Source: Escherichia phage vB_Ec-M-J. Taken from it: 64,000 nt of DNA. Location of the stretch: sequence record OQ718158.1. One strand, written 5' to 3'. Positions 45,170-64,000 of this stretch are shown here, in pieces. A program made the translations under genes and the position numbers. The number at the start of each line of letters is the position of its first letter. Within the stretch, counting starts at the first letter, position 1. The notes under the pieces were generated by a model. It saw only the letters and a list, made by a program, of their open reading frames with translations, searched no databases and was not told the DNA's origin.

Positions 45170-45172
45170 TAA

Positions 45173-45205
45173 AAAATCCAGTACTATAATAGTACTGGAT
45201 TAATT
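45173..45205. terminator. bidirectional terminator between convergent blocks
   Basis: ccagtactataatagtactgg palindromic hairpin flanked by A/T runs. Confidence 0.6.
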
Positions 45206-46330: not shown

Positions 46331-46407
46331 GATAAAATCTCCTTGTGTTATACTTTATTTAATCATTTTATAATGTACAATTTTACAGCGATTTAATTGA
46401 GGTACTC
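46331..46407. promoter_or_regulatory. divergent promoter region
   Basis: A/T-rich 77-nt spacer between divergent starts, SD on each side. Confidence 0.4.
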
Positions 46408-47058: not shown

Positions 47059-47091
47059 AAGAAAAAGCCAGTACATAGTACTGGCTTTATA
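47059..47091. terminator. bidirectional terminator
   Basis: gccagtacatagtactggc hairpin flanked by A-run and T-run. Confidence 0.6.
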
Positions 47092-48225: not shown

Positions 48226-48295
48226 AATTCCCTCCTTTATTCTTTATACTATATTTAATCAAAAAGAAAAGCCAGTACTCTGTACTGGCATTATT
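48226..48295 (-). promoter_or_regulatory. array intergenic module: hairpin terminator plus conserved TATAA/SD box
   Basis: Minus-sense gccagtacagagtactggc-TTTTCTTTTTGATTAAATATAGTATAAAGAATAAAGGAGGGAATT-ATG. Confidence 0.55.
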
Positions 48296-49456
48296 TTAAA
48301 TTGGTGAATCTTCAACAAATATAGTACTAGCAGTACCACCAGATACTAGGTTAGTACCACTTGAATATATTTTGTTTCCATCTGTCATATATGTTTTACC
48401 ATAGCAACTTTGGATTTTAACATCTTTGAAATTCAAATCAGGAGTAATAGATTTAGTGTAAGTTAATACGTTAGTAGTTGAACCTGTACTTAATTGTCCA
48501 TAGTATGAAGTCGCTGAGTTATTACCAGCAACGTATACACCTGTGTCAGTAATAACAAAGTTAGAGTAATATCCGTACCCATATCCTATATCTAATATAT
48601 TTCCTTGTGGTTGATTTGCCACAACAGTTGTCAATATGTTGGTTGATGCTGCTGTATTAGTAGCAGCCTGTCCATATGATTGGTCACCACCAGTATACAC
48701 AGTAACAACAGACGTACTATTGTTTCTAGCAATACCTTGAACCATACCATTAACAGTACTTATAAATGCTATAGTACTAACAGTTGCTGGTAATCTATCT
48801 GATAATGCGAATACATTATAAAAACTCACGGTTGAAGTACTGTTAGTATCACCCTTAACTTCACCTGTGTAATATAGTCTACCACTTTCGGCAATAAACG
48901 AACACATGTTTATACCTGCAATAATCCTTTTCGGAACCGCACCACTTGGTATAATTGATTGTACTAAAGTAGAGAAACTGTTAGAATAAGAAGCATTCCC
49001 AAGCTGCCCTCCTGTGTTATAACCACCACTCCAAATTGTCCCATTACTCATAAGTATTGAAATGAAGTTATTCCCTAGTGATATTTCTGAAATTGTTCCT
49101 TGGGAATTAACTTGATTAATAACAGTTTGCATAGAAGTCCATGCATTAACAGATGATGTACCCATACACACATTGTATTGTCGCCCTGTGTATTGATATG
49201 TACCATCTGATTTGTGAATCATTGTAGCATACTGACCACACCATACATCAATGACATCCGATGCAGTTACTGTCCATGATGTTCTGGTTGTATTGTCTCC
49301 TAAACCCAACTGACCACTTGAATTGGAACCACGGGTATATAATTTACCATTACTACCCAATACCATAACCCAGTTATACCCTGCAACTAATTTTTTAATG
49401 GCAGCAGGGGATGGTGCAATGTTCCCGTAATCAAACAATCTTACAAAAGGTAACAT
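48296..49456 (-). CDS. MLPF-family beta-propeller protein, paralog 3
   Basis: Start set at MLPFVRLFDYGN (track ORF extends 13 codons upstream); GQLGLGDNTT and GGQLGN blades; AAGGAG SD. Confidence 0.7.
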   Translation of the reverse strand: MLPFVRLFDYGNIAPSPAAIKKLVAGYNWVMVLGSNGKLYTRGSNSSGQLGLGDNTTRTSWTVTASDVIDVWCGQYATMIHKSDGTYQYTGRQYNVCMGTSSVNAWTSMQTVINQVNSQGTISEISLGNNFISILMSNGTIWSGGYNTGGQLGNASYSNSFSTLVQSIIPSGAVPKRIIAGINMCSFIAESGRLYYTGEVKGDTNSTSTVSFYNVFALSDRLPATVSTIAFISTVNGMVQGIARNNSTSVVTVYTGGDQSYGQAATNTAASTNILTTVVANQPQGNILDIGYGYGYYSNFVITDTGVYVAGNNSATSYYGQLSTGSTTNVLTYTKSITPDLNFKDVKIQSCYGKTYMTDGNKIYSSGTNLVSGGTASTIFVEDSPI

Positions 49457-49469
49457 TTTTTTCTCCTTA

Positions 49470-50618
49470 TTATATTGATGGCATATCCAACACATATGAG
49501 TTGCTAGTAATTGATGAATATGTAGAATTTAAACCTGTACTATAAACATAATCACCTGCCCATAAGAATGTTCTATCCAATGTTGTATGTATTTCAATAT
49601 CATCATATGATGATAATGATATTTGTGCTAGTGTATATGTAGTAGCATCAATGTTTGAACCAATACCCAAAGTACCATTGTATTGTGATTGGGAGTTTTG
49701 ACCAGTTGCATATATACCAGATTTGGTTATTAAATGCTGATTGTACATTGACGTACCTTTAAACAATTTAATTAAATTAGAGTTAGGTGTAGTTATTGGT
49801 GCAGGAGCAAGTATTGTTGTTGTAGTGCCACCATCACCTAATTGTCCATATCGTTGGTAACCACCAGCGTATACCTGTTTAACTCCAGCCGTAGTTTCAA
49901 TAATAAAGAATGAACCATAGCCAGTAGTATTAAAGTCTATAATTTTATTTGTACTCAAACCAACATTATATCTAGTAAATGTTGTTGCATTTGCTGAACC
50001 ACCAGCATTCCCACCTACCATTTGCCCACTATAATAAAATGCTCCAGTACTGTCAGTATAAGCCATACAGTTCTCACTACCATAGATTTTTACTGGTGTA
50101 CTGGGGAAACTAGAGGTTATATTCACACATGTATTATATTTTGCAGTAGTTCCAGTAATTTCACCATTGTTGTTTTGCCCAATTACCCAAACTGTGTCAT
50201 CCGAACGTATAGCCATTGAGCTATAAAACGAGGATACAAATTGTTTAATAAAGGAACCAGGGAGAGAAGTAAGCATACTATTGATTTGTGCACTCACATT
50301 GGTCCATGTATTCACAACTGAATTGACACCTGCGGCTGCACCTGAACCAGAACTCCACCATGATTCATCATTCTTTTTAATCAATGTACCATTAGCAGAG
50401 CAATAAACATCAGCAACTGAACTATTAACTAATATCCATGCCCTCGCTGCTGTTGTATTACCAGTACCTAGCTGTCCTGCTGCATTACTACCCTTAGCAT
50501 ATAAATCTCCATTCTGCGTTAAAAGCATAGCATGTTGGTATCCAGTTGACAATTTCTTTATTTTTGGTAATGCTGGTGCTTCATTTCCATAATCAAACAT
50601 TCTAACAAAAGGTAACAT
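49470..50618 (-). CDS. MLPF-family beta-propeller protein, paralog 4
   Basis: MLPFVRMFDYGNEAP; AAGQLGTGNTT and YGQLGDGG blades; C-terminal YVLDMPSI. Confidence 0.7.
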   Translation of the reverse strand: MLPFVRMFDYGNEAPALPKIKKLSTGYQHAMLLTQNGDLYAKGSNAAGQLGTGNTTAARAWILVNSSVADVYCSANGTLIKKNDESWWSSGSGAAAGVNSVVNTWTNVSAQINSMLTSLPGSFIKQFVSSFYSSMAIRSDDTVWVIGQNNNGEITGTTAKYNTCVNITSSFPSTPVKIYGSENCMAYTDSTGAFYYSGQMVGGNAGGSANATTFTRYNVGLSTNKIIDFNTTGYGSFFIIETTAGVKQVYAGGYQRYGQLGDGGTTTTILAPAPITTPNSNLIKLFKGTSMYNQHLITKSGIYATGQNSQSQYNGTLGIGSNIDATTYTLAQISLSSYDDIEIHTTLDRTFLWAGDYVYSTGLNSTYSSITSNSYVLDMPSI

Positions 50619-50689
50619 AATTCCCTCCTTTATTCATTATACTATATTTAATCAAAAAGAAAAGCCAGTACTCAAGTACTGGCATTATC
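50619..50689 (-). promoter_or_regulatory. array intergenic module: hairpin terminator plus conserved TATAAT/SD box
   Basis: Minus-sense gccagtacttgagtactggc-TTTTCTTTTTGATTAAATATAGTATAATGAATAAAGGAGGGAATT-ATG. Confidence 0.55.
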
Positions 50690-51868
50690 TTAAAATTGTG
50701 GTAGTTGGTATTCAGTTAATGTCCATGTACCTGTAACTGTTCCATTCGGGGACATCCCTGTGTAGTATAATTTGCCACCAGCGTATACAAATAATGCATT
50801 GTCATTAGCAGCAACCATCGAAGTTTCTGGATCAAATACTACAGAAATTGGTAATTGTGATTGAACAAATACTGACGCATTGGTAGTTGAATTGTTACCA
50901 AGTTGTCCATAGTTGTTATACCCAGTACTGAAAATACGGCTACCATTTCTATATAATATACCCCTAGTACTTTGTGAATGTAGATCTATAAATTCAAAAT
51001 CGGAAACATTAGTTAATTGCAAATAAGTACTTTGTGGAGTTAGTGCTGTCTTATTCGTATTGGTTGTAACTCCATTACCTAATTGACCGTAAAATTGTGA
51101 TCCTAAACCATATAGCGGATAAGTACCATCTGAATAAAGAACTATACCCAACATCTTATTATGTGAAAGAATATCTATTGGATATTTCCCTGTACCAAAG
51201 TCGTATCTAGTCCAAGACGTTAATGTAGCCGACGCTGCCCCAGTTAACAAAGTACCAGTGGTAGTTGTGCCACATCGCCACGCTGAATTATCATTCTTAA
51301 TTATCCAAGTTGGACTATTAAAAAATGAACTAACCTTTTTAACATTAATATTGACCTGGGTTAATTCTGTAAGCATTGATGAACTTGAACCCAACTCATA
51401 TGTGGAGTTATTACCTATTGCATAAAGAACCCCACTATTTGTTAGTACAAACAAATTACGAACATTAGGATATATCTCTTTAATATCATCAATATTAATA
51501 CCCGAAAAATAAGAAGTACATTCCACAAAGGTAGTACTTTGTACTTCACTCGATGCACCTGTCCAGGTGTTCCATCCTGCATAATAAAATTTATTATCAT
51601 TAGTCTGTACTAAGCTATATGAAGAGTTCCTAGTGCACCAGAAATTTTTCACATTTTGCATTAATCGAACCCATGATGTCTGTGTTGTAGTATTACCCAG
51701 TCCGAAAATACCAGCATTGTTTCCACCGATACCCCACAAATCACCGTTACTATACTGTAGCATCAATGTATTGTTGGTGAACGCTGATGGTGCTTGCATT
51801 TTAATTACATTAGCTGATGGTGCAGGTTTAATATTCCCGTACTTAACCATTCTTGCAAAAGGTAACAT
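50690..51868 (-). CDS. MLPF-family beta-propeller protein, paralog 5
   Basis: MLPFARMVKYGNIKP; YGQLGNG blades; C-terminal EYQLPQF. Confidence 0.7.
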   Translation of the reverse strand: MLPFARMVKYGNIKPAPSANVIKMQAPSAFTNNTLMLQYSNGDLWGIGGNNAGIFGLGNTTTQTSWVRLMQNVKNFWCTRNSSYSLVQTNDNKFYYAGWNTWTGASSEVQSTTFVECTSYFSGINIDDIKEIYPNVRNLFVLTNSGVLYAIGNNSTYELGSSSSMLTELTQVNINVKKVSSFFNSPTWIIKNDNSAWRCGTTTTGTLLTGAASATLTSWTRYDFGTGKYPIDILSHNKMLGIVLYSDGTYPLYGLGSQFYGQLGNGVTTNTNKTALTPQSTYLQLTNVSDFEFIDLHSQSTRGILYRNGSRIFSTGYNNYGQLGNNSTTNASVFVQSQLPISVVFDPETSMVAANDNALFVYAGGKLYYTGMSPNGTVTGTWTLTEYQLPQF

Positions 51869-51943
51869 ATATTTTTCCTCCTTTATTCATTATACTATAT
51901 TTAATCAAAACGAAATGCCAGCACTCAAGTACTGGCATTATTG
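51869..51943 (-). promoter_or_regulatory. array intergenic module
   Basis: Same hairpin plus TATAATGAATAAAGGAGG box. Confidence 0.55.
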
Positions 51944-53134
51944 TTATAGTTGTCTTGGAGTATCAAGTACATATCTATTTGTACTAGGACCACCATCATC
52001 ATAAGTTCCGGTTGAATATATATTTTTCATATCAGCAGTTAGGAAAGTACGTAACGACCCTCGATATATTTTTATTTTATCATACATAGAATATGTTATT
52101 TCTGACGGCAATGGACATGCAGTAAATTTACCAATGGTAACATTAGAACCAACACCCAATGAACCAGCATAACTACTCGCATTTAAACCTGTTGCATATA
52201 CACCAGAACTCGTAACTAGTATACTAGATTGTGCTGGGTATCCAGTATGAATTGAATACAAAGTACCGGGTGGTAAGGTTGTACTATTATTTCCTAATAC
52301 TGCTCGTGCTGTACTAGACGTAGTGTTATTACCCCATGCCCCATTATTGGCGTTCCCACCCACTAGGAACTGACGTGCTCCTGTACTTGGATTCTCCACT
52401 AAAGCACTGACTGCACCAATTGTACATACAACATATTGTAATGTTTTTGTATATGTTGTACTTGGCTGATATAAAGTATATTGATTGTATGGAGTCCATG
52501 TATCAGTAGTACTTATACCTGATGTACTACCACCAATATATAAATTATTTTGTGTATCATAAAACATTACACAGCTATTTGTTGACTGTATTCGTGCAAT
52601 ATCAACATTAGGCGTGACAGCTTTTACAAATGATCCATCTGTTATTTGCTGAGTACTACCAGTACCATCAGCGAATTGTCTAGCCCCACTCCAACCAGTA
52701 CTCCATATTGTATTATTATCCATTAAGAAAGTAAACCAAGTAGTACCTGCATACATCTGTTTAATTGAAGTACCTGAACTTTGTGTGTACAAATTTTCAA
52801 TATATTGGTTATAACTTAAAAATGATGTAGTACTAGTTTCTAAACCAATATGACTACCATATCCACAATAAAAATAATTTAAGTCCTTATCTTGAACTAA
52901 CAAAGTTCCTTGTGTCATCCAGCAATCTTTGACATTTTCTCTAATTAATGTCCACGACCTTACTGCATTATTATTTCCGCGACCGAACTTCCCATAACTA
53001 TTATTTCCTCGTGCGTATAGTTGACCGTCAGTATAAAGTACAACCACATCAGTATCAGTTGGTATTATTTTCTTAATTAGAAGAGGTTCAGGTGTGATAT
53101 TCCCATAATCAAACAATCTAACAAAAGGTAACAT
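51944..53134 (-). CDS. MLPF-family beta-propeller protein, paralog 6
   Basis: MLPFVRLFDYGNITP; C-terminal YVLDTPRQL. Confidence 0.7.
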   Translation of the reverse strand: MLPFVRLFDYGNITPEPLLIKKIIPTDTDVVVLYTDGQLYARGNNSYGKFGRGNNNAVRSWTLIRENVKDCWMTQGTLLVQDKDLNYFYCGYGSHIGLETSTTSFLSYNQYIENLYTQSSGTSIKQMYAGTTWFTFLMDNNTIWSTGWSGARQFADGTGSTQQITDGSFVKAVTPNVDIARIQSTNSCVMFYDTQNNLYIGGSTSGISTTDTWTPYNQYTLYQPSTTYTKTLQYVVCTIGAVSALVENPSTGARQFLVGGNANNGAWGNNTTSSTARAVLGNNSTTLPPGTLYSIHTGYPAQSSILVTSSGVYATGLNASSYAGSLGVGSNVTIGKFTACPLPSEITYSMYDKIKIYRGSLRTFLTADMKNIYSTGTYDDGGPSTNRYVLDTPRQL

Positions 53135-53204
53135 ATTTTCCTCCTTTATTCATAATACTATATTTAACCAAAAAGAAAAGCCAGTACTTGATACTGGCGT
53201 AATG
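53135..53204 (-). promoter_or_regulatory. array intergenic module
   Basis: gccagtatcaagtactggc hairpin plus conserved box. Confidence 0.55.
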
Positions 53205-54347
53205 TCAATAAGCTTCCCACGGTAAGGGTGTCTTCCTAAATCCATACCTGGTTGTGGTCGCACCATCACCAGCAATGTATCGACCGATACCACATTGGTA
53301 TAACTCTGTACTACTACATATAGCACCACCAATAGTACCACTACTCCACAGAATTATATTAGAATATGTTATTGGTAAATCACTACATTTAGTATATACA
53401 CCAACGGTAGCAGTCCCACTAATACCACCAAACATACTTCGGTTAGCACCAGTATAATATATACCATCTGGACTCATAAATGCAGAGGTGTAAGTTGTAC
53501 TACAATCCACTGGACTTCTTATAGTATTAAGATCGCCTGGGTATGTCCTGACACCAAAGGTGTATACATTACCATCAGTTGTAATACCATTACCTAACTG
53601 CCCACTGTTTTGTCCACCACATGTAAGCAACAATGCAGAACCAGAAACAATTGCAGTAGCATTATACGAAGTACCCATCGCAATAGAAGCACCAGACAAT
53701 AGTTTTGGAGTAACAATAGCTGTTGTATTACCCTGGCCTAATTCACCATTGATATTTCGTCCCCATGCGTATATAGAAGTTGTATCCAATCGACATAGTA
53801 CTGAACCATAACTAAACGTATATCGCATGTCAATTACCGCATTAGGCAAATTAACCTTAGTTGCAACACTAATAACACCACCAGTAACACCACTGTTTGC
53901 GTTCATGTTACGACCATATGCATATAAAGAACCATCTGAAGTTTTAATATGCATCATACCATCTGTACAATACAATGCATCTATACTATCCACTGCAACC
54001 GGACCCATACTGGTAGTTATATCGGTCCACCCAAGCGTGGTAGTACTGGAAATTAAGTTATTTCCGGCGTATAGTATTCTATTATTATTAGTAACTACAA
54101 CTGTATATCTGGCAGTAACACCAATTAATCGAACATCAGTATATATCTTAGACCACGCACCTAATGAATTGGTGTTTGCATCCAAAAAGCCCAACTGCCC
54201 ATCTGTATTGTATCCAATACCCCATACATCACCTGCACTGTCCAATAACACTTCATGTGAAAATCCAATCTTAAAATCTTTTATTGTAGGAACTACCGGA
54301 ACTGGTGCAATATTCCCGTACTTAACCATTCTAGCAAAAGGTAACAT
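53205..54347 (-). CDS. MLPF-family beta-propeller protein, paralog 7
   Basis: MLPFARMVKYGNIAP; DGQLGF, GELGQGNTT and SGQLGNG blades. Confidence 0.7.
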   Translation of the reverse strand: MLPFARMVKYGNIAPVPVVPTIKDFKIGFSHEVLLDSAGDVWGIGYNTDGQLGFLDANTNSLGAWSKIYTDVRLIGVTARYTVVVTNNNRILYAGNNLISSTTTLGWTDITTSMGPVAVDSIDALYCTDGMMHIKTSDGSLYAYGRNMNANSGVTGGVISVATKVNLPNAVIDMRYTFSYGSVLCRLDTTSIYAWGRNINGELGQGNTTAIVTPKLLSGASIAMGTSYNATAIVSGSALLLTCGGQNSGQLGNGITTDGNVYTFGVRTYPGDLNTIRSPVDCSTTYTSAFMSPDGIYYTGANRSMFGGISGTATVGVYTKCSDLPITYSNIILWSSGTIGGAICSSTELYQCGIGRYIAGDGATTTRYGFRKTPLPWEAY

Positions 54348-54423
54348 AATTCCCTCCTTTATTCATTATACTATATTTAATACAAAAAAGAAAAGCCAGC
54401 ACTCAAGTACTGGCATTTTAATT
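54348..54423 (-). promoter_or_regulatory. array intergenic module
   Basis: Hairpin plus conserved box. Confidence 0.55.
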
Positions 54424-55572
54424 TTAACGAGGTATAACTATTTTTTTGAATAATCCAGTATTTCCTGCATTTTCTTCTTCATATGGAATTGTACCCATAC
54501 CAGCAGTTCTGCCACCATTCCCTGAACCATACAGTTCTCCATTCTTAATCATGAATGTTATCATATAACCATGTGTCATTTTATCATATGGAACTGGTTC
54601 AGTTATATTATTACATGCTCGCCATGTACTAATAACACTAGAGTTCGTTATACCATCACCTGATGCGTTTCCTCGACCAGCGAAATACCATATCCCACCT
54701 GCTCTAACGTGTGCTTCATAATTAGAACCACCTATGTAATCAATCGCAGTACTAGGAATACTAGAAGCTGGTATCTTTGTGATTGTTCTAAGACTGTTAA
54801 TAGTGCCATTAGTACCATCACCCAACTGTCCATATATTTGTGAACCGAATACATATAGCCCATCACTCTTTAATACGTAATTAGCACTATATGCATTTTC
54901 TGAATTTACCTGTAATACTCCAGTAGTAACAGTAGTCAATGTGGTGGTAGTTGTACCAGTCGAACCAATACTAGATTTATTCCCACTGTACTTTAATATT
55001 CCATTATTGTATAATACAAATGAAGCATTATCAGCGGTTACACCAATATCTTTAACATCAACTTCTGGTGTCAATGTCAGTACTGATACTCTTTGGTCAA
55101 CAGCCCCAGTAAAAACTTCACCGTTGTTATTGTAACCCATCTTATATAATTTATTATCTATTGTTAATAATAATGTAACGCCGTTTCCTATAACTATTTT
55201 ACTATATGTGTCATTCACATCATCAAAAATACCAAGTATTTCTGTCCATACACGATAAGTAGTATTAACACCACGATAGATTTGAGCACCAGTACTCCAC
55301 CATGTGCCATCATTTTTACGTACTAATATTCCATGTGTATTACCAGTAGTCCAAAATTCCTTTACATCAGTTAAACATAAAACCCACTCTTCAACTATAG
55401 TAGGAGAACTACTACCAGTACCTAATTGATAGTAAAAATTATGCCCTCTGCCATATAATCTTCCGTCTTCTAATAAAATAAACACATTATTCTGTAAAAC
55501 TTTTACCATCTTTATACCAACTGGCACAGGTGCTTCATTCCCATAATCAAACATTCTAACAAAAGGTAACAT
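54424..55572 (-). CDS. MLPF-family beta-propeller protein, paralog 8
   Basis: MLPFVRMFDYGNEAP; YYQLGTG and YGQLGDG blades. Confidence 0.7.
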   Translation of the reverse strand: MLPFVRMFDYGNEAPVPVGIKMVKVLQNNVFILLEDGRLYGRGHNFYYQLGTGSSSPTIVEEWVLCLTDVKEFWTTGNTHGILVRKNDGTWWSTGAQIYRGVNTTYRVWTEILGIFDDVNDTYSKIVIGNGVTLLLTIDNKLYKMGYNNNGEVFTGAVDQRVSVLTLTPEVDVKDIGVTADNASFVLYNNGILKYSGNKSSIGSTGTTTTTLTTVTTGVLQVNSENAYSANYVLKSDGLYVFGSQIYGQLGDGTNGTINSLRTITKIPASSIPSTAIDYIGGSNYEAHVRAGGIWYFAGRGNASGDGITNSSVISTWRACNNITEPVPYDKMTHGYMITFMIKNGELYGSGNGGRTAGMGTIPYEEENAGNTGLFKKIVIPR

Positions 55573-55643
55573 ATTTCCCTCCTTTATTCATTATACTATA
55601 TTTAATTCAAAAAGAAAAGCCAGTATCAAGTACTGGCATTATG
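55573..55643 (-). promoter_or_regulatory. array intergenic module
   Basis: Hairpin plus conserved box. Confidence 0.55.
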
Positions 55644-56753
55644 TTATTTTGGTAAATCAATTTTAGTAAAGACTGCAACATCCTCGCTTGCCCCTGGGAT
55701 GGCGTAATAAGAACCAGTACTATATACATCTCCGTCTTTTGTTAATATTGAAGTTAAACCATCACTAAAAAGAACATCACTAATCTCACTAACTGAAACA
55801 GGTAATTGTAAATTAGTAGCACTATATATTGCACCAGTTTGAGAATTGTTTAATCCCAAACCACGGTTCGCCCCAACACCCTTCTGATATGTACTAGTAA
55901 TTATAATTTGTGTAGCAGTATTTAATGCAGGTGAATTCGTCATAAACAACGGAGAACTATTAGGCAAAGAACTTACAGGAACTGCACGAAATGTAGTTGT
56001 ATCTGAACTAAGAAAGTTTGGCGTTTGACCACATACGAAATATGATGTACCATTATAGTAATTAAATGCATTACCACCTATAGCTGCATCTATTACTCCA
56101 GTACTACGTAATCCCCACGTGTTAATTTGTGTTCGGTTCCCCGTGCCATGCTGACCCCTGTCATTCCACCCAGAACTATATAACTTATTATCTAATGTAA
56201 TATACATACTGTCATTTGAATTCGTCATTACTTTACGCACATTAGTAGCACATTGAGTTAATGTGTAAATTGATGATGAACCAATACCTAAAGCACCACG
56301 ATATCCATTAGCCCCTGCACCATAGAGTACTGAACTAGTGCTAAGTACAAATATTAAACCATACGAACATACTATATCAGCAATTTCATTTACCGATAGT
56401 ACACTCGTAAACCACGCAGTCCTATCAACTAATACAGTACTGTAAGAAGTCCCAGTAGAAGACGAAAACCAATAAGTCTCACCAGCAGTCCATATAGTAT
56501 TGTCACTCTTAATAACAACAACTGTACGATCACCAGCAAAAAAATTAGTAACTTCTGTACTCACTAATCTCCATGAAGATACAGTGTTGGTATTACCATT
56601 TCCAGATTCACCACCTTGATTTCTACCTATGTAATATAAATCATGTGAATCAGTCAATAAGAATTGACCCTGTGTAGACGCACCAACTTTTATTATATTT
56701 TTAGGACCAGGTGTGATATTCCCATAATCAAACATTCTTACAAAAGGTAACAT
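55644..56753 (-). CDS. MLPF-family beta-propeller protein, paralog 9
   Basis: MLPFVRMFDYGNITP; RGQHGTGNRT blade; C-terminal FTKIDLPK. Confidence 0.7.
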   Translation of the reverse strand: MLPFVRMFDYGNITPGPKNIIKVGASTQGQFLLTDSHDLYYIGRNQGGESGNGNTNTVSSWRLVSTEVTNFFAGDRTVVVIKSDNTIWTAGETYWFSSSTGTSYSTVLVDRTAWFTSVLSVNEIADIVCSYGLIFVLSTSSVLYGAGANGYRGALGIGSSSIYTLTQCATNVRKVMTNSNDSMYITLDNKLYSSGWNDRGQHGTGNRTQINTWGLRSTGVIDAAIGGNAFNYYNGTSYFVCGQTPNFLSSDTTTFRAVPVSSLPNSSPLFMTNSPALNTATQIIITSTYQKGVGANRGLGLNNSQTGAIYSATNLQLPVSVSEISDVLFSDGLTSILTKDGDVYSTGSYYAIPGASEDVAVFTKIDLPK

Positions 56754-56763
56754 ATTTCTCTCC

Positions 56764-57894
56764 TTAATTTAATAATGCCCCTGGCAAATCCACTTTGACG
56801 AATTGTGCATATGCTGAGGAATTTTGATCAAAGTTTGGTCCCAATCCATAAAATGAGCTAATGCCGTCTTCATTTGTGTATATGATATAAACGTTCTTTA
56901 CATCATTTCCGCATATAAATCGAATGTCTTTCGTTTGTGTTCCCGCTGGAACATTACGAAGGTTCACAACGCCATTACTTGCATTGTTATCAGCCGACGC
57001 AATTGGTAATTGATTTTGACCATATTGACCACGCATATTTTTTGCATCTAAACCAAACACAGTATCTGATACCGCACCAACTTTCAAAAATGAACCAAAA
57101 CTATTATTGAATGACTTTGGAAATGTACCACTATAAACACTTCTCCCATCTGATAATACCGCTGAACTGAATTTCCCGCTATTCGATATGGCAAATTCAT
57201 TGTAAGGAAGTGTACCCATTTTGGTATATACAGAATATGAATTAGTGGAAGTATTATCAATAATCTTATTACCATTATATCCAATACCATACTGGTATCC
57301 GTCTGCATCTTGAACTATACACAAAGGACCACTTGGGGTTTGTGTCAACGAAACAACACGTTCAACTTGTATATCACCAAATGTATTTCTTCGCCATGTT
57401 CTATCTATTATAGTACTAGTATTACCCAAAGATAATGCCACACTATATAATAGATTGTTTTCAGTAAAAATGGCAACATAATATGCGTGGTTAATAACTT
57501 GCTTCATCCCAGCATCAATAACTTCCTGTGGAATATGATCAGTAACATCCAACCAATCAAGGTTAGATGATGCAATATCTGGAGTACTGAATTTGTCAAA
57601 TCTAGTTGAGCCACAAACTAGCACTCTATCATCATTTGTCAAAGCCACTGTGCTAGTCTGCATATTAGAACTGAATGATTTAACATTACTAATGTTAGAC
57701 TTGTACCAACCCTTATCAGCAGCACCCACCGTGAATCCGGTTCCCATTGATCCACTTGTACTTGTACCATAAGCCCACATCTCACCACTATATGTTAGTG
57801 CCATACAGTGGCTTCCATTTGCTTGGAAATCCTTTATACCAGTGGGAGCAACCACTGTATTCCCATAATCAAACATTCTAACAAAAGGTAACAT
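56764..57894 (-). CDS. MLPF-family protein, paralog 10
   Basis: MLPFVRMFDYGNTVV; only 10 nt from paralog 9 start; C-terminal FVKVDLPGALLN. Confidence 0.7.
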   Translation of the reverse strand: MLPFVRMFDYGNTVVAPTGIKDFQANGSHCMALTYSGEMWAYGTSTSGSMGTGFTVGAADKGWYKSNISNVKSFSSNMQTSTVALTNDDRVLVCGSTRFDKFSTPDIASSNLDWLDVTDHIPQEVIDAGMKQVINHAYYVAIFTENNLLYSVALSLGNTSTIIDRTWRRNTFGDIQVERVVSLTQTPSGPLCIVQDADGYQYGIGYNGNKIIDNTSTNSYSVYTKMGTLPYNEFAISNSGKFSSAVLSDGRSVYSGTFPKSFNNSFGSFLKVGAVSDTVFGLDAKNMRGQYGQNQLPIASADNNASNGVVNLRNVPAGTQTKDIRFICGNDVKNVYIIYTNEDGISSFYGLGPNFDQNSSAYAQFVKVDLPGALLN

Positions 57895-57971
57895 AACTAA
57901 TTCTCCAAATTCAAATAATTATAATGTATTTACAAAAAAAATACCAGCACATATTTCAGTACTGGTATCAT
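57895..57971 (-). promoter_or_regulatory. array intergenic module (variant box)
   Basis: Hairpin with cagtactg core plus TGTAAATACATTATAAT and GGAG SD. Confidence 0.5.
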
Positions 57972-59153
57972 TTATGGTAAAATGATAGATTGTAACGAAC
58001 TCATACCCAATGCTGGAACACTAGCCTGTGGTGCTGGAGAATTCAATTTTGGTGATGAAACCGCATATGACATTCCTGAACCCAAATCTGGATCAAAAAC
58101 TACAGCACAATAATTCCCACTATATATAAGTCCATTCTTGTATCCTTGTGCACTTTGAATGCATTTCGTGAACGTACCAATATCTGTAGTGGCATTTATT
58201 AAGTTCCTCCCACGATAACCGCAGGTGTATATGAAATTATCATCGCCTATGTACATACTAGAATCCCCAGAAGAACTACATAGATACGACATATAAGCAC
58301 GCATGTTTTTAGGAGCAACTGACAATGTACCTGCATAGAATTTATTATTCGAACCCGTAATATCACCATCACCCAATGCACCAAAACTTCCCCAGCCAGT
58401 ACCATAATATCTCTTATCACTCAAGAATATAATACAGTTGTTATTACACATCTTGACTTGATATATCAATGAAGGATCAACCCCAGGGAATGATTCAGTG
58501 TATGTTAGAACAGCCAGATCAGTACTAGCATTACATTGATGATATGTATTAGTACCAGCGGACAAGATTGTTCCATTAGCTAACAGAATTCTCGCAGTAC
58601 CAGTACCAGCAGTACAAGCAACTGCACTTCCTGCACTTCCGGTGTATATTTGTCTGAAAGTAAAGAAACCAACAGTTTTACTTCCCTGCCCACTCCAACC
58701 AGTATTATCAACTCCACACGCCCATACTGAACCATCTTGCATGATCATCATTACACCAAAGCGTTCTATTGAAATATAAACAATCTTCGTTGTATCAACT
58801 GCACTAAATCTAGAAGTTATATCAGTCCATACCTTAACACTTACCGCCGTCGCACTGGAAGTAGGATCTTCACCAGCTATCATTATCCTCCCATTGTTAG
58901 TAAGATACATTGTCTGACTATAACCAGTACTACAAAACTTAACACTATCAGTCTCTGGAACTTTTAACCACTCGTTGTAACGTGTTACGTTAGTGTTATT
59001 ACCTAACTGATAATAGTTATTCATCCCAGATACATATAACACACCATCCTTTATTAAACTATAAGTCGCACTATAGTCACTACAGGTATAACGTGTACCC
59101 ACAGGTCGCTCAACGACGTTCCCATAATCAAACATTCTAACAAAAGGTAACAT
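57972..59153 (-). CDS. MLPF-family protein, paralog 11
   Basis: MLPFVRMFDYGNVVE; divergent body. Confidence 0.7.
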   Translation of the reverse strand: MLPFVRMFDYGNVVERPVGTRYTCSDYSATYSLIKDGVLYVSGMNNYYQLGNNTNVTRYNEWLKVPETDSVKFCSTGYSQTMYLTNNGRIMIAGEDPTSSATAVSVKVWTDITSRFSAVDTTKIVYISIERFGVMMIMQDGSVWACGVDNTGWSGQGSKTVGFFTFRQIYTGSAGSAVACTAGTGTARILLANGTILSAGTNTYHQCNASTDLAVLTYTESFPGVDPSLIYQVKMCNNNCIIFLSDKRYYGTGWGSFGALGDGDITGSNNKFYAGTLSVAPKNMRAYMSYLCSSSGDSSMYIGDDNFIYTCGYRGRNLINATTDIGTFTKCIQSAQGYKNGLIYSGNYCAVVFDPDLGSGMSYAVSSPKLNSPAPQASVPALGMSSLQSIILP

Positions 59154-59226
59154 AATAAAATCTCCGTAATTAAATTATATAGTATTTACAAAAAATACCA
59201 GTACATATTTCAGTACTGACCTATTA
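59154..59226 (-). promoter_or_regulatory. array intergenic module (variant box)
   Basis: Hairpin plus GTAAATACTATATAAT and GGAGA SD. Confidence 0.5.
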
Positions 59227-60348
59227 TTAAAAGGGCAACGGTAACTCAGTAAAAGTACTTACGTCCGGTAAACCATACATTGAATTAGCATCACCACAGT
59301 AATACCACTTCGTAGAATCATGTACCACCGATAAACGCTGTGCACATAACACTTCCTGTATGTCATTAAACACCATCGGGACTAACTCATATGTATCCGC
59401 AAATGAAGATACACCACCACTCGCATGAAAAGTATTCGTCCCAGCATAAAATAACTGATTAGTGTTCTTACCCACAGCAAATGTCATCAATATCCCATCA
59501 TTCTCCCATAAAGAAGAAAACTTATCAACACTACCAGAAAGCTCTGTGTAAGTACTCGTAATGGCACTCGCAGCCGCCGCATTACCCATCTGTTTATTCA
59601 AGTTCTGTCCAGCAATAAAATATCTCGTGCGTGCACTAGAATCAGTATATAATAACCCAGTGTTCGTAGTCATCATTCCAATGTCCTTAATCGTCATACC
59701 AGTCTGTGAATAACTTAGATACGAAGTTAAACTACCATTATTACCCAACGAACCGTTATCACTCATGCCACAACGATGTAATATACCACTTGTATCAACG
59801 TAGATAGTACTAACTAAACTCGTATACAACTCTTGTACATTATTCGCAATAAACACAGCAGTCGCCTTATTACTAACCCCACCAAATGATAGGTTATTAT
59901 CAAATCCCTTAGCGTATAATTGATTATTAGTAGTCAATAATCCAATCGTGAAATAAGACATTTTCATATCCCTTACTGTACTCAAATCTACTGCCCCAAA
60001 TTGGTGCGTAACATCTGTCCATGTGAAAATCTGTGCACTACCAACACCACCCGTTTCAAACCATTTGTCACCACAGTACAATATGCGATTACCCTTAGTA
60101 AAGATAACTGTTACCAATCCACTACCACACGCAAACTTTACATCACTTCTAACCTTCGTCCAATCAAGTACATAGGTAGTGGTGTTATTACCTATACCTA
60201 ACTTGCCATAACGGTTATAACCACGCACCCACAAATCACCACTCTTAGTAATTAATAGTAATGCGTCTCCTGTACTTATTATTCGAAATCCCGAACTAGG
60301 ATCAGGTACTTCATTTCCATAATCAAACATTCTAACAAAAGGTAACAT
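59227..60348 (-). CDS. MLPF-family protein, paralog 12
   Basis: MLPFVRMFDYGNEVP; C-terminal FTELPLPF. Confidence 0.7.
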   Translation of the reverse strand: MLPFVRMFDYGNEVPDPSSGFRIISTGDALLLITKSGDLWVRGYNRYGKLGIGNNTTTYVLDWTKVRSDVKFACGSGLVTVIFTKGNRILYCGDKWFETGGVGSAQIFTWTDVTHQFGAVDLSTVRDMKMSYFTIGLLTTNNQLYAKGFDNNLSFGGVSNKATAVFIANNVQELYTSLVSTIYVDTSGILHRCGMSDNGSLGNNGSLTSYLSYSQTGMTIKDIGMMTTNTGLLYTDSSARTRYFIAGQNLNKQMGNAAAASAITSTYTELSGSVDKFSSLWENDGILMTFAVGKNTNQLFYAGTNTFHASGGVSSFADTYELVPMVFNDIQEVLCAQRLSVVHDSTKWYYCGDANSMYGLPDVSTFTELPLPF

Positions 60349-60421
60349 ATATCCCTCCTTTATTCATTATACTATATTTAATCAAAAAAGAAATGCCAGT
60401 ACTCAAGTACTGGCATAGTAT
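60349..60421 (-). promoter_or_regulatory. array intergenic module
   Basis: tgccagtactcaagtactggca hairpin plus conserved box. Confidence 0.55.
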
Positions 60422-61549
60422 TCAAAAAGGTAAATCAATTTGCTTAGTAATAATAGTATCTAACGGTATTGAACACAATGAGAAATTCTTTCCACCCGTA
60501 TTTTCAGGATTATATCCATTCATCCATACATTATTACCTTCGTAAAATGTATTCCAGTATAAAGACCCACTATATCGTGTATTCGAATTGAACGATGTAA
60601 AATTGAATTCTTGAAATGCTGTAAAATATGGAAGGGAACTTGAACTACTTCCCGTAAATGGGGTATGCCCAGTTGCTATTAGTTTGTTTGTATCTGCATT
60701 AATTAAAAATACAACACTAGTCGAATAGTCCAACGAATCAGGATGATATATATTACTCATATCACCTATAGTAAAACCAACATCAAAAACTTTACTATGT
60801 GCACCACTACCAGCAAAAGTAGTTCCAGTTGCATATATTTTATTATCAGATGTTATCATTACAAAACCAACACCAGAAACAAAACTGCATTTTATATCAT
60901 AAGATATATCATCAAACAACGGAACAAATGTGGTTGCATCACCCGATGTTGCTTTAACTTGAAAGCTGTTATTTGAACCTGAACCATATACAGTTCCATC
61001 GTTTTTAATCTTAAACAATGTATCGCCAAGGTAACCGCCAAATATATTATCCACATTAGTGTCAAGTACAGTCCACGCTGAAACATAATTTTTATGTCCT
61101 AAACCTAATGTACCACTTCGATTCCATCCTCTTCCATAAAGTGTTCCGTCTTTCATTAATATAAATGCTGTATAACCACATAACATTTTTTTAATTTGGG
61201 TAACATCTATACCAGTGAAATACACAGCCCAGTCAGTATATCCTTGTTGGAAAGTATTAGAATTCGTGAATGCATATGTTGAACCTGAACCATATATTTT
61301 ATCACCTTTAATAACAACGGAAAACGATCCTAACCATAAGTCATCAACTTCAGTTGTGATTTGTTGAACTGCTCCTAACGATACAAACTGTGTACTTAAA
61401 CCCGCATTATAGTTTGAATCTTCACCGTGTGCATATACAGTGCCATCTTGCATTAGAAACATTTCAAGAGTGTAACTAACAACACTTTTCTTTATATTAT
61501 TAACTTCGATTATATTCCCATAATCAAACATTCTAACAAAAGGTAACAT
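60422..61549 (-). CDS. MLPF-family protein, paralog 13
   Basis: MLPFVRMFDYGNIIE; C-terminal KQIDLPF. Confidence 0.7.
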   Translation of the reverse strand: MLPFVRMFDYGNIIEVNNIKKSVVSYTLEMFLMQDGTVYAHGEDSNYNAGLSTQFVSLGAVQQITTEVDDLWLGSFSVVIKGDKIYGSGSTYAFTNSNTFQQGYTDWAVYFTGIDVTQIKKMLCGYTAFILMKDGTLYGRGWNRSGTLGLGHKNYVSAWTVLDTNVDNIFGGYLGDTLFKIKNDGTVYGSGSNNSFQVKATSGDATTFVPLFDDISYDIKCSFVSGVGFVMITSDNKIYATGTTFAGSGAHSKVFDVGFTIGDMSNIYHPDSLDYSTSVVFLINADTNKLIATGHTPFTGSSSSSLPYFTAFQEFNFTSFNSNTRYSGSLYWNTFYEGNNVWMNGYNPENTGGKNFSLCSIPLDTIITKQIDLPF

Positions 61550-61618
61550 AATTCCCTCCTTTATTCATTATACTATATTTAATCAAAAAAAGCCAGTATC
61601 AAGTACTGGCATATTAAT
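61550..61618 (-). promoter_or_regulatory. array intergenic module
   Basis: Hairpin plus conserved box. Confidence 0.55.
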
Positions 61619-62767
61619 TTACTGCAAAAATGACATATCGACTTCTGTATAATTAAGAACGTTCTGTCCAGAAATACCACCCATTACTACTATTGCAAGG
61701 CCACAATAATATAATTTTCCAGTATCAGTAAGTATAAGTGAACCAGATGGGGTGCGTACCAAATTACAAGAGGTATTAAACGAAGTATATGAAGGAGTAT
61801 AGGAGTACTGATTAATATTATTACCAACACCTAATTGACCAGACGCGTTGCTTCCAGATGCATAAAGTACTTCATCACCTTTAACTATATGTGATGCCAT
61901 GTTACCAACACAAGTATATAAACTATAAACACCTGCACTCAATAATGTGGGGGTTTTATATTGTATATCAGTAGAAGAGGAAGTACCACCTGTACCAAAT
62001 TCGTTCCCATATTGTGCACCGAACTGTTTACCACAAGCGTACAAATTATTATCCGATTTGATAAAAAATGTACTCTGATAACTTACATTAAAATCTATAA
62101 CATCCGAAGAAATCATCGTCACCCCAGTAATAGAAGTTTGATTACCCGTGCCCAACTGGTAGTAATAGTTAAAACCACAACCCCATAAAGTATTATCTTC
62201 TCGCAAATAAATGTTACCAACTGCCTTTTTAACCGAAGTTATAGTATCTACTCTTTTGAATGTGTTAAAAGAATTAATGTTTGTGCCATCACCAAATGAT
62301 GATATGTTCGATATATTGTTAGCTCCACAACAATACAATGTACCATCGTTTGTTATCAAATTCACCTTCATATCATAAAAACTACTCATGTATTTTATAT
62401 CAGAAACATTAATACCACTTGATGTTATCCACGTAGTACAGTCCGTCCACAAAGTTTTTCTATCAGTTACACCAGTGAATGCCTTCGTGTTACCAGTGAT
62501 AAAAACTTTTCCAGTACCTTTCTCTTCATACAATTGACAATCACTACTGTTATCTTCCAATAGAACTCGTTTAACATTCTCCGCACAAAGAATAAATTTA
62601 CTCGATGCTACACCTGTACCAGTACCCCAATTCGTCGCAGAAGATGCATACAACTTATCAGTATAAGTATCATGAAGATACATAGAATCACTGGAATATA
62701 TTTTAAAACGCCCAGAGTTGGTAGGTGCTTCATTCCCATAATCAAACATTCTTACAAAAGGTAACAT
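61619..62767 (-). CDS. MLPF-family beta-propeller protein, paralog 14
   Basis: MLPFVRMFDYGNEAP; YYQLGTGNQT and SGQLGVGNN blades. Confidence 0.7.
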   Translation of the reverse strand: MLPFVRMFDYGNEAPTNSGRFKIYSSDSMYLHDTYTDKLYASSATNWGTGTGVASSKFILCAENVKRVLLEDNSSDCQLYEEKGTGKVFITGNTKAFTGVTDRKTLWTDCTTWITSSGINVSDIKYMSSFYDMKVNLITNDGTLYCCGANNISNISSFGDGTNINSFNTFKRVDTITSVKKAVGNIYLREDNTLWGCGFNYYYQLGTGNQTSITGVTMISSDVIDFNVSYQSTFFIKSDNNLYACGKQFGAQYGNEFGTGGTSSSTDIQYKTPTLLSAGVYSLYTCVGNMASHIVKGDEVLYASGSNASGQLGVGNNINQYSYTPSYTSFNTSCNLVRTPSGSLILTDTGKLYYCGLAIVVMGGISGQNVLNYTEVDMSFLQ

Positions 62768-62779
62768 ATTTCCTCCAAA

Positions 62780-63685
62780 TTATTTAAAAACATACTGCGT
62801 ATTAACACGTGTCCCGTTGTCGTAACCAAGTACGTAAAATATTTCAGCACTATTATTAGAGCCAAATAATGCACCAGTACTATTACTCAACGTTGTATTG
62901 ATAGCTAATGGTATCCATTTGTTTTGCTCGGCATCATATTTTAATAAATTTAATGCACCATAAGATACTGCATATATACCTTTGTCATATCTATTGTAAA
63001 TTATCTTACTAGGGTTAGCTCCACCAACTGCTGCCATTCTTGACCAAACCGCACTCTCTATGTGATATTTTTGTGCAGGAGTAGATCCTTGTCCTGTAAA
63101 ATATATGTAAGTACCATCAGTGCACATATCACCACCACCATTGTTTGTTGTATTCCCAGTAGTACCTAACGATGTCCATGTATTAGTACTCGGCGTATAA
63201 CTATATAATGCAGTATTAGACGGTGAACCCCACAAATATATCTTATCCCCTGTAGTAATCATCTTACTATATACTGCCTGGTTAGGTTTGCCAACACTTG
63301 TATTATTCAGTGTCCATGTATCAGAGCTTATGTCATATACATAAAAATTATTATTAGCAACATTCGCTGCACCTAAACCACCGAACAAATATATTTTTCC
63401 TTGATAGGCACACAATGCACTTCCATAGGTGGATACTGGTGGTGATGATAATTGTACCCATATTCTAGAATTTAAATTAAAACTCCATAACTGATTATCC
63501 TGGTTCGAAGTATTCATTATACCACCAAATATATAAGCAGTATTTCTTGATGCATCATACGTATAACCAAAGTTATTTCGTGCTGAAGGTACTGGTGATG
63601 TGGTAAATTGAGTTCGTATACCACCATTTGGGGCTGGTAATGGAGCTTCATTCCCATAATCAAACATTCTAACAAAAGGTAACAT
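62780..63685 (-). CDS. MLPF-family protein with kelch-like repeats, paralog 15
   Basis: Start set at MLPFVRMFDYGNEAP (track ORF extends 30 codons upstream); kelch-like IFGG / IYLFGG / IYLWG units. Confidence 0.65.
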   Translation of the reverse strand: MLPFVRMFDYGNEAPLPAPNGGIRTQFTTSPVPSARNNFGYTYDASRNTAYIFGGIMNTSNQDNQLWSFNLNSRIWVQLSSPPVSTYGSALCAYQGKIYLFGGLGAANVANNNFYVYDISSDTWTLNNTSVGKPNQAVYSKMITTGDKIYLWGSPSNTALYSYTPSTNTWTSLGTTGNTTNNGGGDMCTDGTYIYFTGQGSTPAQKYHIESAVWSRMAAVGGANPSKIIYNRYDKGIYAVSYGALNLLKYDAEQNKWIPLAINTTLSNSTGALFGSNNSAEIFYVLGYDNGTRVNTQYVFK

Positions 63686-63733
63686 ATTTCCTCCTTTATT
63701 CATTATATCATATTTACCCCATAAACAAAACCC
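63686..63733 (-). promoter_or_regulatory. conserved TATAAT/SD box upstream of paralog 15
   Basis: Minus-sense TAAATATGATATAATGAATAAAGGAGGAAAT-ATG. Confidence 0.5.
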
Positions 63734-63762
63734 TTGACATCCTTTCAGTACTGGTGTACTAT
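63734..63762 (+). promoter_or_regulatory. sigma70-like promoter
   Basis: TTGACA-N17-TACTAT with cagtactg in spacer. Confidence 0.5.
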
Positions 63763-63787
63763 AGAAGGAATACAAGGAGAACTACAC

Positions 63788-64000
63788 ATGACAGCTACAC
63801 TTAAGTACTACATTAATACTCTAAATGAACTAGAGTACGGTAAGTTTCTCGCGGATAGTTCGTGGCTAATTGAGCTAAAAACACATAACAGTACTGGATG
63901 TAACCTTATGCTGAACAATGCACTTGATACCCTTGTAGTGAGTATTTTACACAGCACCATCTGCGGGGATAGCAATAAACAATTATCAAAAATCTTAGTA
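63788..64000 (+). CDS. hypothetical protein, 3'-truncated by window end
   Basis: ATG after AAGGAGAA; open to window end. Confidence 0.5.
   Translation, partial: MTATLKYYINTLNELEYGKFLADSSWLIELKTHNSTGCNLMLNNALDTLVVSILHSTICGDSNKQLSKILV

Follow-up and report, generated by a model that had tools for sequence, protein, structure and literature searches.

Predicted late transcription units and exchangeable cassettes in a propeller-gene array of Escherichia phage vB_Ec-M-J

Introduction

How can a tandem array of paralogous genes carry nearly the same start on every gene while the bodies behind those starts differ widely, and what does the repeated DNA between the genes do? The question is raised by a minus-strand array of Escherichia phage vB_Ec-M-J, which lies in a stretch of 64,000 nucleotides (nt) of sequence record OQ718158.1 that was analysed in full and is called the window here. 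Similar arrays are found in related phages, where the phAPEC6 genome paper lists multiple 'RCC1 / DNA condensation' genes and speculates on a role in DNA packaging (PMC7247149), and other genome papers of the group likewise note such genes and speculate on packaging. An earlier sequence-only reading of positions 48226 to 63733 had proposed that each array gene carries its own promoter-like box, Shine-Dalgarno (SD) site and hairpin terminator.

By megablast, the window groups with the Asteriusvirus jumbo phages of E. coli and Salmonella (PBECO4, 121Q, phAPEC6, BF17 and fEgEco12). Phages of the PBECO4/121Q/phAPEC6 type are Rak2-like 'group 2' jumbo phages, in which host RNA polymerase is redirected by phage sigma factors (PMC11895373; PMC7318152). 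Since PBECO4, 121Q and phAPEC6 belong to these users of the host polymerase, a placement among nucleus-forming chimalliviruses akin to Goslar, with multisubunit RNA polymerases of their own, was rejected.

Here we describe the segment that lies between most of the array genes, which we call the joint, and which combines a terminator-like hairpin, a promoter-like box, an SD site and the first 36 nt of the following coding sequence (CDS). The array in the window is divided into 12 predicted transcription units, nine monocistronic and three made of translationally coupled pairs. On sequence evidence, we consider it reasonably probable that the box is a T4-type late promoter with TAAATA as its core; this degree of confidence applies to the explanation as a whole, which takes in late units, joints, a gp55-like reader, a docking tag and shuffling. 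No account of the joint architecture, its late-promoter identity or the exchange of cassettes was found in the literature; in one GenBank record, the joints bear automatically assigned repeat_region, terminator and ribosome-binding-site features.

Results

A minus-strand array of propeller genes

The window holds 15 paralogous genes on its minus strand, whose proteins start with MLPF[VA][RL][ML][FV][DK]YGN. The GC skew reverses at about 46 kb, where the array starts, and inspection of the open reading frames (ORFs) found paralogs alone in the array. A plus-strand gene (46408-47058) stands between the contiguous array and a detached fifteenth member. The genes, named by the type of their bodies, are as follows.

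47092-63685, minus strand, contiguous array of 14 paralogs, body types in transcription order J B U C A D E K G H V O W L
62780-63685, minus strand, CDS of J
61619-62767, minus strand, CDS of B
60422-61549, minus strand, CDS of U
59227-60348, minus strand, CDS of C
57972-59153, minus strand, CDS of A
56764-57894, minus strand, CDS of D
55644-56753, minus strand, CDS of E
54424-55572, minus strand, CDS of K
53205-54347, minus strand, CDS of G
51944-53134, minus strand, CDS of H
50690-51868, minus strand, CDS of V
49470-50618, minus strand, CDS of O
48296-49456, minus strand, CDS of W
47092-48225, minus strand, CDS of L
45206-46330, minus strand, detached 15th paralog, type M, MLPFVLLFDYGN

Two ORF calls were corrected to starts that have both an SD site and the MLPF tag: gene J, called as 62780-63775, starts at 63685 and not at the TTG at 63775, and gene W, called as 48296-49495, starts at 49456 and not at the ATG at 49495, the uncorrected call of the latter giving an apparent overlap with its upstream neighbour. 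Thirteen of the proteins that were tested or aligned are RCC1-like propellers and the first gene, J, encodes a Kelch protein (Pfam: RCC1, RCC1_2, WD40_RLD, Kelch); for the 15 genes together, the count is 14 RCC1-like beta-propellers and one Kelch protein. In an AlphaFold2 (AF2) model of gene B (predicted template modelling score 0.77), residues 1-17 are unstructured (predicted local distance difference test below 50) and are followed by a confident propeller, for which the best PDB matches are the propellers of UVR8, the HERC2 RLD, RPGR and RCC1 (E-values 1e-18 to 1e-13). The paralog bodies have a median protein identity of 28%.

Anatomy of the joints

The 23-mer box TATAGTATAATGAATAAAGGAGG is present in nine copies at no more than three mismatches, all on the minus strand and each directly upstream of an array gene; 100 shuffles gave no copy. 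The stretch from 45000 to 64000 contains 21 terminator-like sites, where shuffles gave 8.0 +/- 3.1, and 12 of the 21 are a conserved CCAGTAC-loop-GTACTGG hairpin with a T-run on the minus strand. These conserved hairpins have predicted RNA folding energies of -8 to -16 kcal/mol and a consensus stem of 7 base pairs (bp), three of which show compensatory changes. Standing 3' of stop codons and followed by a U-tract, they have the sequence features of intrinsic (Rho-independent) terminators. The joints and related elements are listed below, each joint being named by the genes on its two sides and ending with the first 36 nt of the downstream CDS.

61514-61610, minus strand, joint B>U: hairpin 61592-61610, T-run, TAAATA 61576-61581, TATAAT 61567-61572, SD AAAGGAGGG 61554-61562, ATG 61549
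60313-60416, minus strand, joint U>C: hairpin 60393-60416, TAAATA 60375-60380, TATAAT 60366-60371, SD 60353-60361, ATG 60348
59118-59220, minus strand, joint C>A, variant box II: hairpin 59197-59220, GTAAATA with TAAATA 59183-59188, TATAAT 59174-59179, SD GGAG 59162-59165, ATG 59153
57859-57969, minus strand, joint A>D, variant box II: hairpin 57940-57969, TAAATA 57927-57932, TATAAT 57918-57923, SD GGAG 57903-57906, ATG 57894
55537-55637, minus strand, joint E>K: hairpin 55619-55637, TAAATA 55599-55604, TATAAT 55590-55595, SD 55577-55585, ATG 55572
54312-54414, minus strand, joint K>G: hairpin 54395-54414, TAAATA 54374-54379, TATAAT 54365-54370, SD 54352-54360, ATG 54347
53099-53198, minus strand, joint G>H: hairpin 53180-53198, TAAATA 53161-53166, TATTAT 53152-53157, SD 53140-53147, ATG 53134
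51833-51939, minus strand, joint H>V: hairpin 51914-51939, TAAATA 51898-51903, TATAAT 51889-51894, SD 51877-51884, ATG 51868
50583-50683, minus strand, joint V>O: hairpin 50664-50683, TAAATA 50645-50650, TATAAT 50636-50641, SD 50623-50631, ATG 50618
48190-48289, minus strand, joint W>L: hairpin 48271-48289, TAAATA 48252-48257, TATAAA 48243-48248, SD 48230-48238, ATG 48225
63686-63716, minus strand, box of the first gene J (Kelch), GGGTAAATAtgaTATAATgaataaaGGAGG, no hairpin upstream
46331-46361, minus strand, diverged box of the detached gene M, TAAATAaagTATAAC, SD AAGGAG
62768-62779, minus strand, coupled junction J>B: 12-nt spacer, SD only, no hairpin or box
56754-56763, minus strand, coupled junction D>E, of the same kind as J>B
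49457-49469, minus strand, coupled junction O>W, of the same kind as J>B
47064-47088, minus strand, terminator hairpin after L, the last contiguous gene
45175-45201, minus strand, similar hairpin after gene M

A hairpin with a canonical box thus precedes eight genes (ATG at 61549, 60348, 55572, 54347, 53134, 51868, 50618 and 48225), and a hairpin with a variant box, consisting of GTAAATA-N3-TATAAT, a different and longer leader and a GGAG SD, precedes two more (59153 and 57894). The earlier count of 10 of 15 copies with hairpin and box is reached if these two variants are included. The wider statement that each array gene has both elements does not hold, as two genes have a box and no hairpin, and three (62767, 56753 and 49456) have neither and abut the upstream gene, with an SD alone 10-13 nt past its stop codon.

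All boxes in the window share TAAATA-N3-TATAA(T/C/A), with variable N3, and the second hexamer is TATAAT at nine of the 12. From the end of TATAAT to the ATG there are 16-17 nt in the canonical boxes, close to the 17 nt given in the sequence-only reading, and 20-23 nt in the variants. The same reading noted the lack of a properly spaced -35 element, and the array boxes in the window indeed show neither a TTGACA-like -35 nor a TGn extension: where a -35 would lie, the sequence is CTTTTC or GCTTTT and belongs to the T-run or to the hairpin's 3' arm, and the bases before TATAAT are TAG, CTA or CAT. A scan for TTGAC-N16-18-TAnAAT found 23 sites on the plus strand of the window, before small early genes, and none on the minus strand, which bears out the view that the array boxes form a promoter class distinct from the plus-strand type.

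The TAAATA core outside the window

A genome-wide search for the box, which had been suggested as a check, was run on a complete relative, ECO103 4-12-1 (352 kb), and gave a divided answer. All 12 copies of the 23-mer lie within the array of ECO103, so that the 23-mer was rejected as a genome-wide promoter; the TAAATA core alone is general and found before virion genes. De novo k-mer enrichment in the 210 non-array intergenic regions of ECO103 recovered TAAATA in 47 regions (5 expected), ATAAATA in 25 (1.2 expected) and TATAAATA in nine (0.3 expected). These non-array copies of TAAATA stand a median of 35 nt (range 15-59) before the start codon, and ten sampled genes preceded by them encode a tail sheath, a baseplate wedge, a tail fibre, the major head protein, three 'virion structural' proteins, a DNA polymerase and two proteins of unknown function. 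A fixed TATA element downstream of the generic late TAAATA sites was considered and rejected, since a position matrix showed weak A preferences only.

The 15-nt motif TAAATA-N3-TATAAT is more restricted, with 15 copies in ECO103, all intergenic and sense-oriented, that comprise 13 in the array, one before the tail-tube gene and one before a virion structural gene. The homologue of this last gene in the window, 12300-13457, is also preceded by the motif:

13458-13494, minus strand, bipartite motif TAAATAcgtTATAAT before the non-array gene 12300-13457 (phrog_10468 'virion structural protein')

The comparison was extended to six arrays with 85 genes, namely those of the window, BF17, ECO103, UE-S1, EJP2 and Turkey3. 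The array of CMSTMSU, which is fragmented by frameshifts that are possibly sequencing errors, was left out. All 69 genes with an intergenic region of their own have TAAATA 24-34 nt before the ATG, and 58 of the 69 have TATAAT as the second hexamer, the others having TATAAC, TATGAT, TATAAA or TATTAT. The remaining 16 genes are coupled, lie 8-15 nt from the upstream stop codon and have neither hexamer. Salmonella phage Munch, which is more distant, retains the hairpin, the T-run and TTAAATA-N3-TATAAT with a different leader, and the one promoter inside the array of Pectobacterium phage CBB keeps GTAAATA. Over 53 distinct boxes, Munch included, the footprint consists of the T-tract, TAAATA, a variable N3 and TATAAT, the last conserved at 92-100% per position, with variable sequence beyond.

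A predicted late promoter and its reader

The late promoter of T4 has the consensus TATAAATA at -13 to -6, of which positions -13 and -12 vary among T4-like phages, as in the CTAAATA of Aeh1 (PMC1524935). For CBB and GAP32, three promoter classes, including a late ATAAATA, and a gp55-like sigma factor have been predicted (PMC5259590). In the window, TAAATA is found at all 12 self-standing genes, 9 nt upstream of TATAAT, and the boxes agree with the T4 octamer at six of eight positions. Because TAAATA is universally conserved, shared with late genes and placed upstream of TATAAT, the latter is probably not the key -10 hexamer; its variants TATAAA, TATAAC, TATTAT and TATGAT change positions that are critical for sigma-70. 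With the core enriched before virion genes and array orthologues present in virions (see below), the class is most likely a late one, as the sequence-only reading had considered possible.

That reading had also named a possible reader of the box, the sigma-like protein of the window:

18232-19200, plus strand, RpoD/RpoS-like sigma factor with regions 2, 3 and 4, in the early-gene block; best matches to RpoD C-terminal and RpoS models

A like-placed sigma factor, CBB_513, exists in CBB (PMC5259590). With region 4 kept, this protein would be expected to need a -35 element, which the box does not have. Next to the structural gene block of ECO103, positions 133662-134501 encode a protein, not found within the window, that matches phrog_12791 'sigma factor for late transcription' (E-value 2.7e-154) and phrog_234 'late sigma transcription factor', of the gp55-type family (E-value 8e-18). 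By analogy with T4, a gp55-like late sigma is the more likely reader of TAAATA, and the proposal in favour of 18232-19200 is not upheld.

In the resulting model, the hairpin with its U-tract (CCAGTAC…GTACTGG) would end the upstream unit, and host RNA polymerase, probably together with the phage gp55-like late sigma, would read the next promoter. With TAAATA at -11 to -6, transcription would start about 6 nt downstream, inside TATAAT, and give a leader of about 20 nt that bears a near-perfect SD (AAAGGAGG) 5-6 nt before the ATG. The first 36 nt of the CDS encode the shared N-terminal peptide MLPFxRxxxYGN, which probably docks interchangeable binding domains on the virion. The anatomy of the joints, the motif statistics, the association with virion genes and the late sigma of a relative are direct observations, from which we infer that the boxes and hairpins act as promoters and terminators, which sigma factor reads the boxes and where transcription starts.

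Several observations weigh against this model. T4 gp55 itself gives marginal matches only in direct BLAST and phmmer searches (E-values 0.03-2; 0.03 for the candidate late sigma), and the assignment of the candidate comes from PHROG profiles. The full T4 octamer is absent from the boxes, where -13/-12 read AT, TT, TG or GG and not TA, and at generic sites T is the least frequent base (4 of 51) in the position just 5' of TAAATA. The authors of the CBB study found no homologues of T4 gp33 or gp45, so activation may differ from that in T4 (PMC5259590). The boxes may all come from a single ancestor and be kept alike by gene conversion, so that their conservation may be partly non-functional. Finally, the strongly conserved TATAAT at its fixed N3 has no equivalent at the generic TAAATA sites and could itself be a -10 hexamer.

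This last point leads to an alternative that we consider unlikely, in which TATAAT serves as the genuine -10 hexamer of a promoter that lacks a -35 and is recognised either by the sigma-70 of the host or by the RpoD-like protein of 18232-19200. The role of TAAATA and the T-run would then be that of an upstream A/T-rich enhancer only, and transcription would start about 7 nt after TATAAT, giving a leader of about 10 nt that begins at the SD, which would be unusual. The constant spacing and conservation of TATAAT in all 53 distinct boxes, a second hexamer foreign to the generic late motif, the enrichment of GTATAAT in intergenic DNA of the phage group and a sigma-70-family factor encoded by the phage itself would all be accounted for. 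However, both a -35 and a TGn extension are absent, and the sigma factor at 18232-19200 retains region 4, normally a -35 reader. TATAAA and TATAAC lose the final T and are nevertheless stably kept at orthologous positions in several phages, whereas TAAATA does not vary at any of the 69 genes. Moreover, the 23 clear sigma-70-type promoters all lie on the opposite strand, before small early genes. The array itself encodes virion proteins, and outside it the bipartite motif precedes only the genes for the tail tube and a virion structural protein.

More doubtful still is the possibility that the box has no regulatory role, the joint being a young duplicated segment kept identical by gene conversion, with expression from one promoter before the first gene or by read-through and with hairpins that serve as RNA-stabilising or processing structures or as protein-binding palindromes. 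Homogenisation at the DNA level is indeed evident in the frozen synonymous sites of the first 12 codons and in genome-specific joint variants, three genes work without a box, and the stem word CAGTAC/GTACTG is 50-60-fold over-represented genome-wide, mostly within genes, and may be unrelated to termination. But the spacers and leaders of box I, box II, the box of gene M, Munch and CBB have diverged in sequence and length, while TAAATA, the T-run, the SD and a pairing stem persist, the stem being kept paired by compensatory changes. The same motif is enriched before unrelated virion genes, and boxless genes always lie 8-15 nt from the upstream stop, as expected if broken coupling demands a box. 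The late-promoter explanation is thus preferred to both.

Reordered gene bodies behind a homogenised tag

The 85 gene bodies were clustered at an identity of at least 75% into 52 types, which gave the following orders.

Window: J B U C A D E K G H V O W L M
BF17: J B K N A D E G H I F S ab O L M
ECO103: B P A D X Y E Z K H Q G I F R
UE-S1: B C A E G I H Q aa
EJP2: D E J C A N ac F ad ae af T ag
Turkey3: B P T N C A D ah ai F S I aj ak al L M

The gene order is different in all six arrays despite shared body types, and the best single-locus cover of the window's array by any database genome is 43% or less. The class of the upstream junction (box I, box II or coupled) goes with the type of the preceding gene in 80 pairs and against it in 12, as compared with 59 concordant and 36 discordant pairs for the gene's own body type (Fisher p = 1e-4, the pairs not being independent). 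In a comparison of the window with BF17, type A shows 100% identity from the ATG on but only 23% upstream of it, and gene E of UE-S1 has the upstream joint of D fused to an E body. These three observations argue that the moving unit runs from behind the tag of one gene to the tag repeat of the next. The breakpoint positions, which like the reshuffled orders were observed directly, place the crossovers within the conserved 36 nt at the start of the CDS, the box and terminator travelling with the upstream gene body. The suggestion in the sequence-only reading that the repeated gene ends and boxes drive shuffling is therefore sustained as far as reordered bodies and their association with joints are concerned, and is modified in that the crossovers are placed in the coding part and not in the box. 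In ECO103, the type Z cassette (about 35837-36016 of the sequence segment that holds the array) has decayed to 59 codons behind an intact joint.

Among the window paralogs, nt 1-36 are 83-99% identical; past +45 the identity drops to about 30%. Of the 85 genes, 83 have CCT as codon 3, a codon used at 30% in the bodies; codon 11 is GGG in 67 of 83 genes (11% in bodies) and never GGT, which makes up 62% in the bodies. CBB has mixed codons at both of these tag positions. Tag and box variants are specific to genomes, with MLPFGRMVKYGN on types B, C and A of UE-S1, and MLPFVRMLEYGN together with box II almost throughout EJP2. By these sequence patterns the joints evolve in concert, by gene conversion or unequal exchange, and cassette shuffling between phages at the joints is strongly supported by the comparison of the arrays. 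The array thus presents concerted evolution of regulatory DNA beside very old, diverged coding bodies.

Since the joint is near-identical in every unit, homologous recombination in its coding part can swap bodies. Such recombination would exchange, delete or insert whole bodies in frame, together with the downstream terminator and promoter, and would also homogenise the joints within a genome. By inspection there was no sign of an integron, shufflon or diversity-generating retroelement, the array consisting of paralogs only with exchange in ordinary homology; no dedicated search for a recombinase or reverse transcriptase was made.

A putative virion-docking tag

Two array members of phAPEC6, gp549 and gp551, were seen in purified virions by mass spectrometry (PMC7247149). 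Both have the same joints and start with MLPFARM…, and gp549 is 96% identical to the product of gene B of the window. The annotation of CBB lists several array members among the virion structural proteins, and mass spectrometry has picked up CBB_551 and CBB_552. The supplement of the JP4 virion proteomics contained no searchable RCC entries.

CBB belongs to another genus and has a seven-gene array at the syntenic genome end, next to the terminal repeat (NC_041878.1, 350064-356103). The array is mostly translationally coupled, with one internal terminator and GTAAATA. All seven proteins begin with MLPFx[RI]xxxY[GA]N, behind which stands a domain of Kelch, Laminin_G_3 or unknown type. Because the same MLPF tag stands ahead of other folds in CBB, the tag must be old, act at the protein level and be independent of the fold that follows. 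Array members of EJP2 and Turkey3 include a 'BNR repeat domain', Kelch-like ('NS1A-binding') forms of 245 and 296-315 amino acids (aa) and forms of 449-460 aa, so that even inside Asteriusvirus several kinds of domain stand behind the tag. Lectin-like domains are also found behind the tag in relatives, the window having RCC1 or Kelch propellers.

MLPFxRxxxYGN is thus probably a shared virion-docking tag before interchangeable binding domains; this is the most economical reading of the common N-terminus, from which we infer the docking role. Unexplained hair-like appendages have been described in phAPEC6 (PMC7247149), and CBB has them likewise; a link between these and the array proteins is speculation.

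A further step can be offered only tentatively, and we think it rather unlikely to hold in full: the joint could be a 'plug-and-play' adaptor, through which a domain recombined behind the 36-nt tag repeat would gain in-frame and late expression as its own unit and attachment to the virion in one step, yielding a combinatorial adhesin repertoire exchanged between co-infecting Rak2-like phages. The hair-like appendages of phAPEC6 and CBB would be candidates for the site of attachment, and the palindrome CAGTACTG, which is treated below, could be a nick or protein-binding site that stimulates exchange.

Discussion

Relation to known systems

Tetart et al. reportedly described in 1998 how the adhesin genes of T-even tail fibres recombine at conserved motifs. 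The likeness is that short conserved DNA flanks diverged binding modules and that homologous exchange gives mosaic host-recognition genes; unlike there, the repeated element here is a full regulatory joint plus N-terminal tag in 10-15 tandem copies, and whole genes, not domains, are permuted, inserted or deleted. The Rak2-like Klebsiella phages RaK2 and K64-1 have multi-copy receptor-binding depolymerase tail spikes with branched assembly. They are likewise jumbo relatives with many paralogous virion-surface proteins of differing specificity, but the array proteins here are beta-propellers of about 40 kDa, and not depolymerase tail spikes.

With the late promoters of T4, the boxes share an A/T-rich motif with an invariant TAAATA core, no -35 element and a position a few tens of nt before virion genes, as well as two variable upstream positions, as in Aeh1, RB49 and KVP40, and a gp55-family late sigma in this phage group. 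They differ in that the first two bases are TT, GT or AT and not TA, and that a second conserved hexamer, TATAAT, is spaced from the core by exactly 3 nt at the array genes as well as before the genes for the tail tube and one further virion protein. T4 also uses gp33 and the gp45 clamp, of which the CBB study reported no homologues (PMC5259590). The ATAAATA motif of CBB and GAP32 (Buttimer et al. 2017, PMC5259590) comes from the same phage group and has the same core and the same association with structural genes; no terminator-promoter-SD-N-terminus joint for each gene was described there, and the CBB array is mostly one operon. The parts, namely a T4-like late promoter, an intrinsic terminator and homologous cassette exchange, are thus of known kinds; for their arrangement no earlier description was found.

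It is the arrangement, and no new principle, that constitutes the advance, and its main bearing is on the host-range biology and engineering of phages. It gives a testable map of late transcription units for this group of jumbo coliphages. The 'chromosome condensation' genes of Asteriusvirus look like late, virion-associated and rapidly reshuffled cassettes for surface proteins, and not like genes for DNA-condensing proteins. As a compact natural module of about 100 bp plus a 12-residue tag, the joint might, if docking is true, be used for displaying foreign binding domains or for re-targeting phages.

The early side of the window and a repeated palindrome

The plus strand of the window carries about 100 small genes and five tRNAs. 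A search of the intergenic joints against Rfam gave no family match at the gathering score, the five tRNAs being the only matches in the window:

3423-6842, tRNA cluster Ser-TGA, Ser-GCT, Met, Asn, Thr, interspersed with early promoters

Several early genes on the plus strand (27684, 31278, 34321, 38944, 40422 and 41834) have fused terminator-promoter modules, in which the stem of a GGCTGAC-TTCG-GTCAGCC hairpin supplies the TTGAC -35, the T-run forms the spacer and TATAAT follows. These modules are the early-gene counterpart of the compact late joints of the array. In ECO103, tiny genes on the minus strand at 301-321 kb have in front of them about 25 near-identical strong early promoters, AAAAAGTACTTGCA-N17-TATAATGTTTTACAT; in the orientation of the window, this block falls just past the array. 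The motif ACTTGCA…GCGTATAAT was considered as a 'middle' promoter class for the RpoD-like sigma and was rejected, as it corresponds to these approximately 25 near-identical sigma-70-like early promoters (cTTGCA-N17-TATAAT).

The palindrome CAGTACTG is present in 42 copies in the window (e.g. at 4130, 4551, 5311, 21610, 36785, 57957 and 59211), with about 0.7 expected from base composition. In the whole ECO103 genome there are 204 copies (3.5 expected), and AGTACT is found 919 times (121 expected). About 83% of the CAGTACTG sites are intragenic genome-wide, with a hot region at 300-325 kb of ECO103, and both the array terminator stems and several early-promoter spacers are built from this word.

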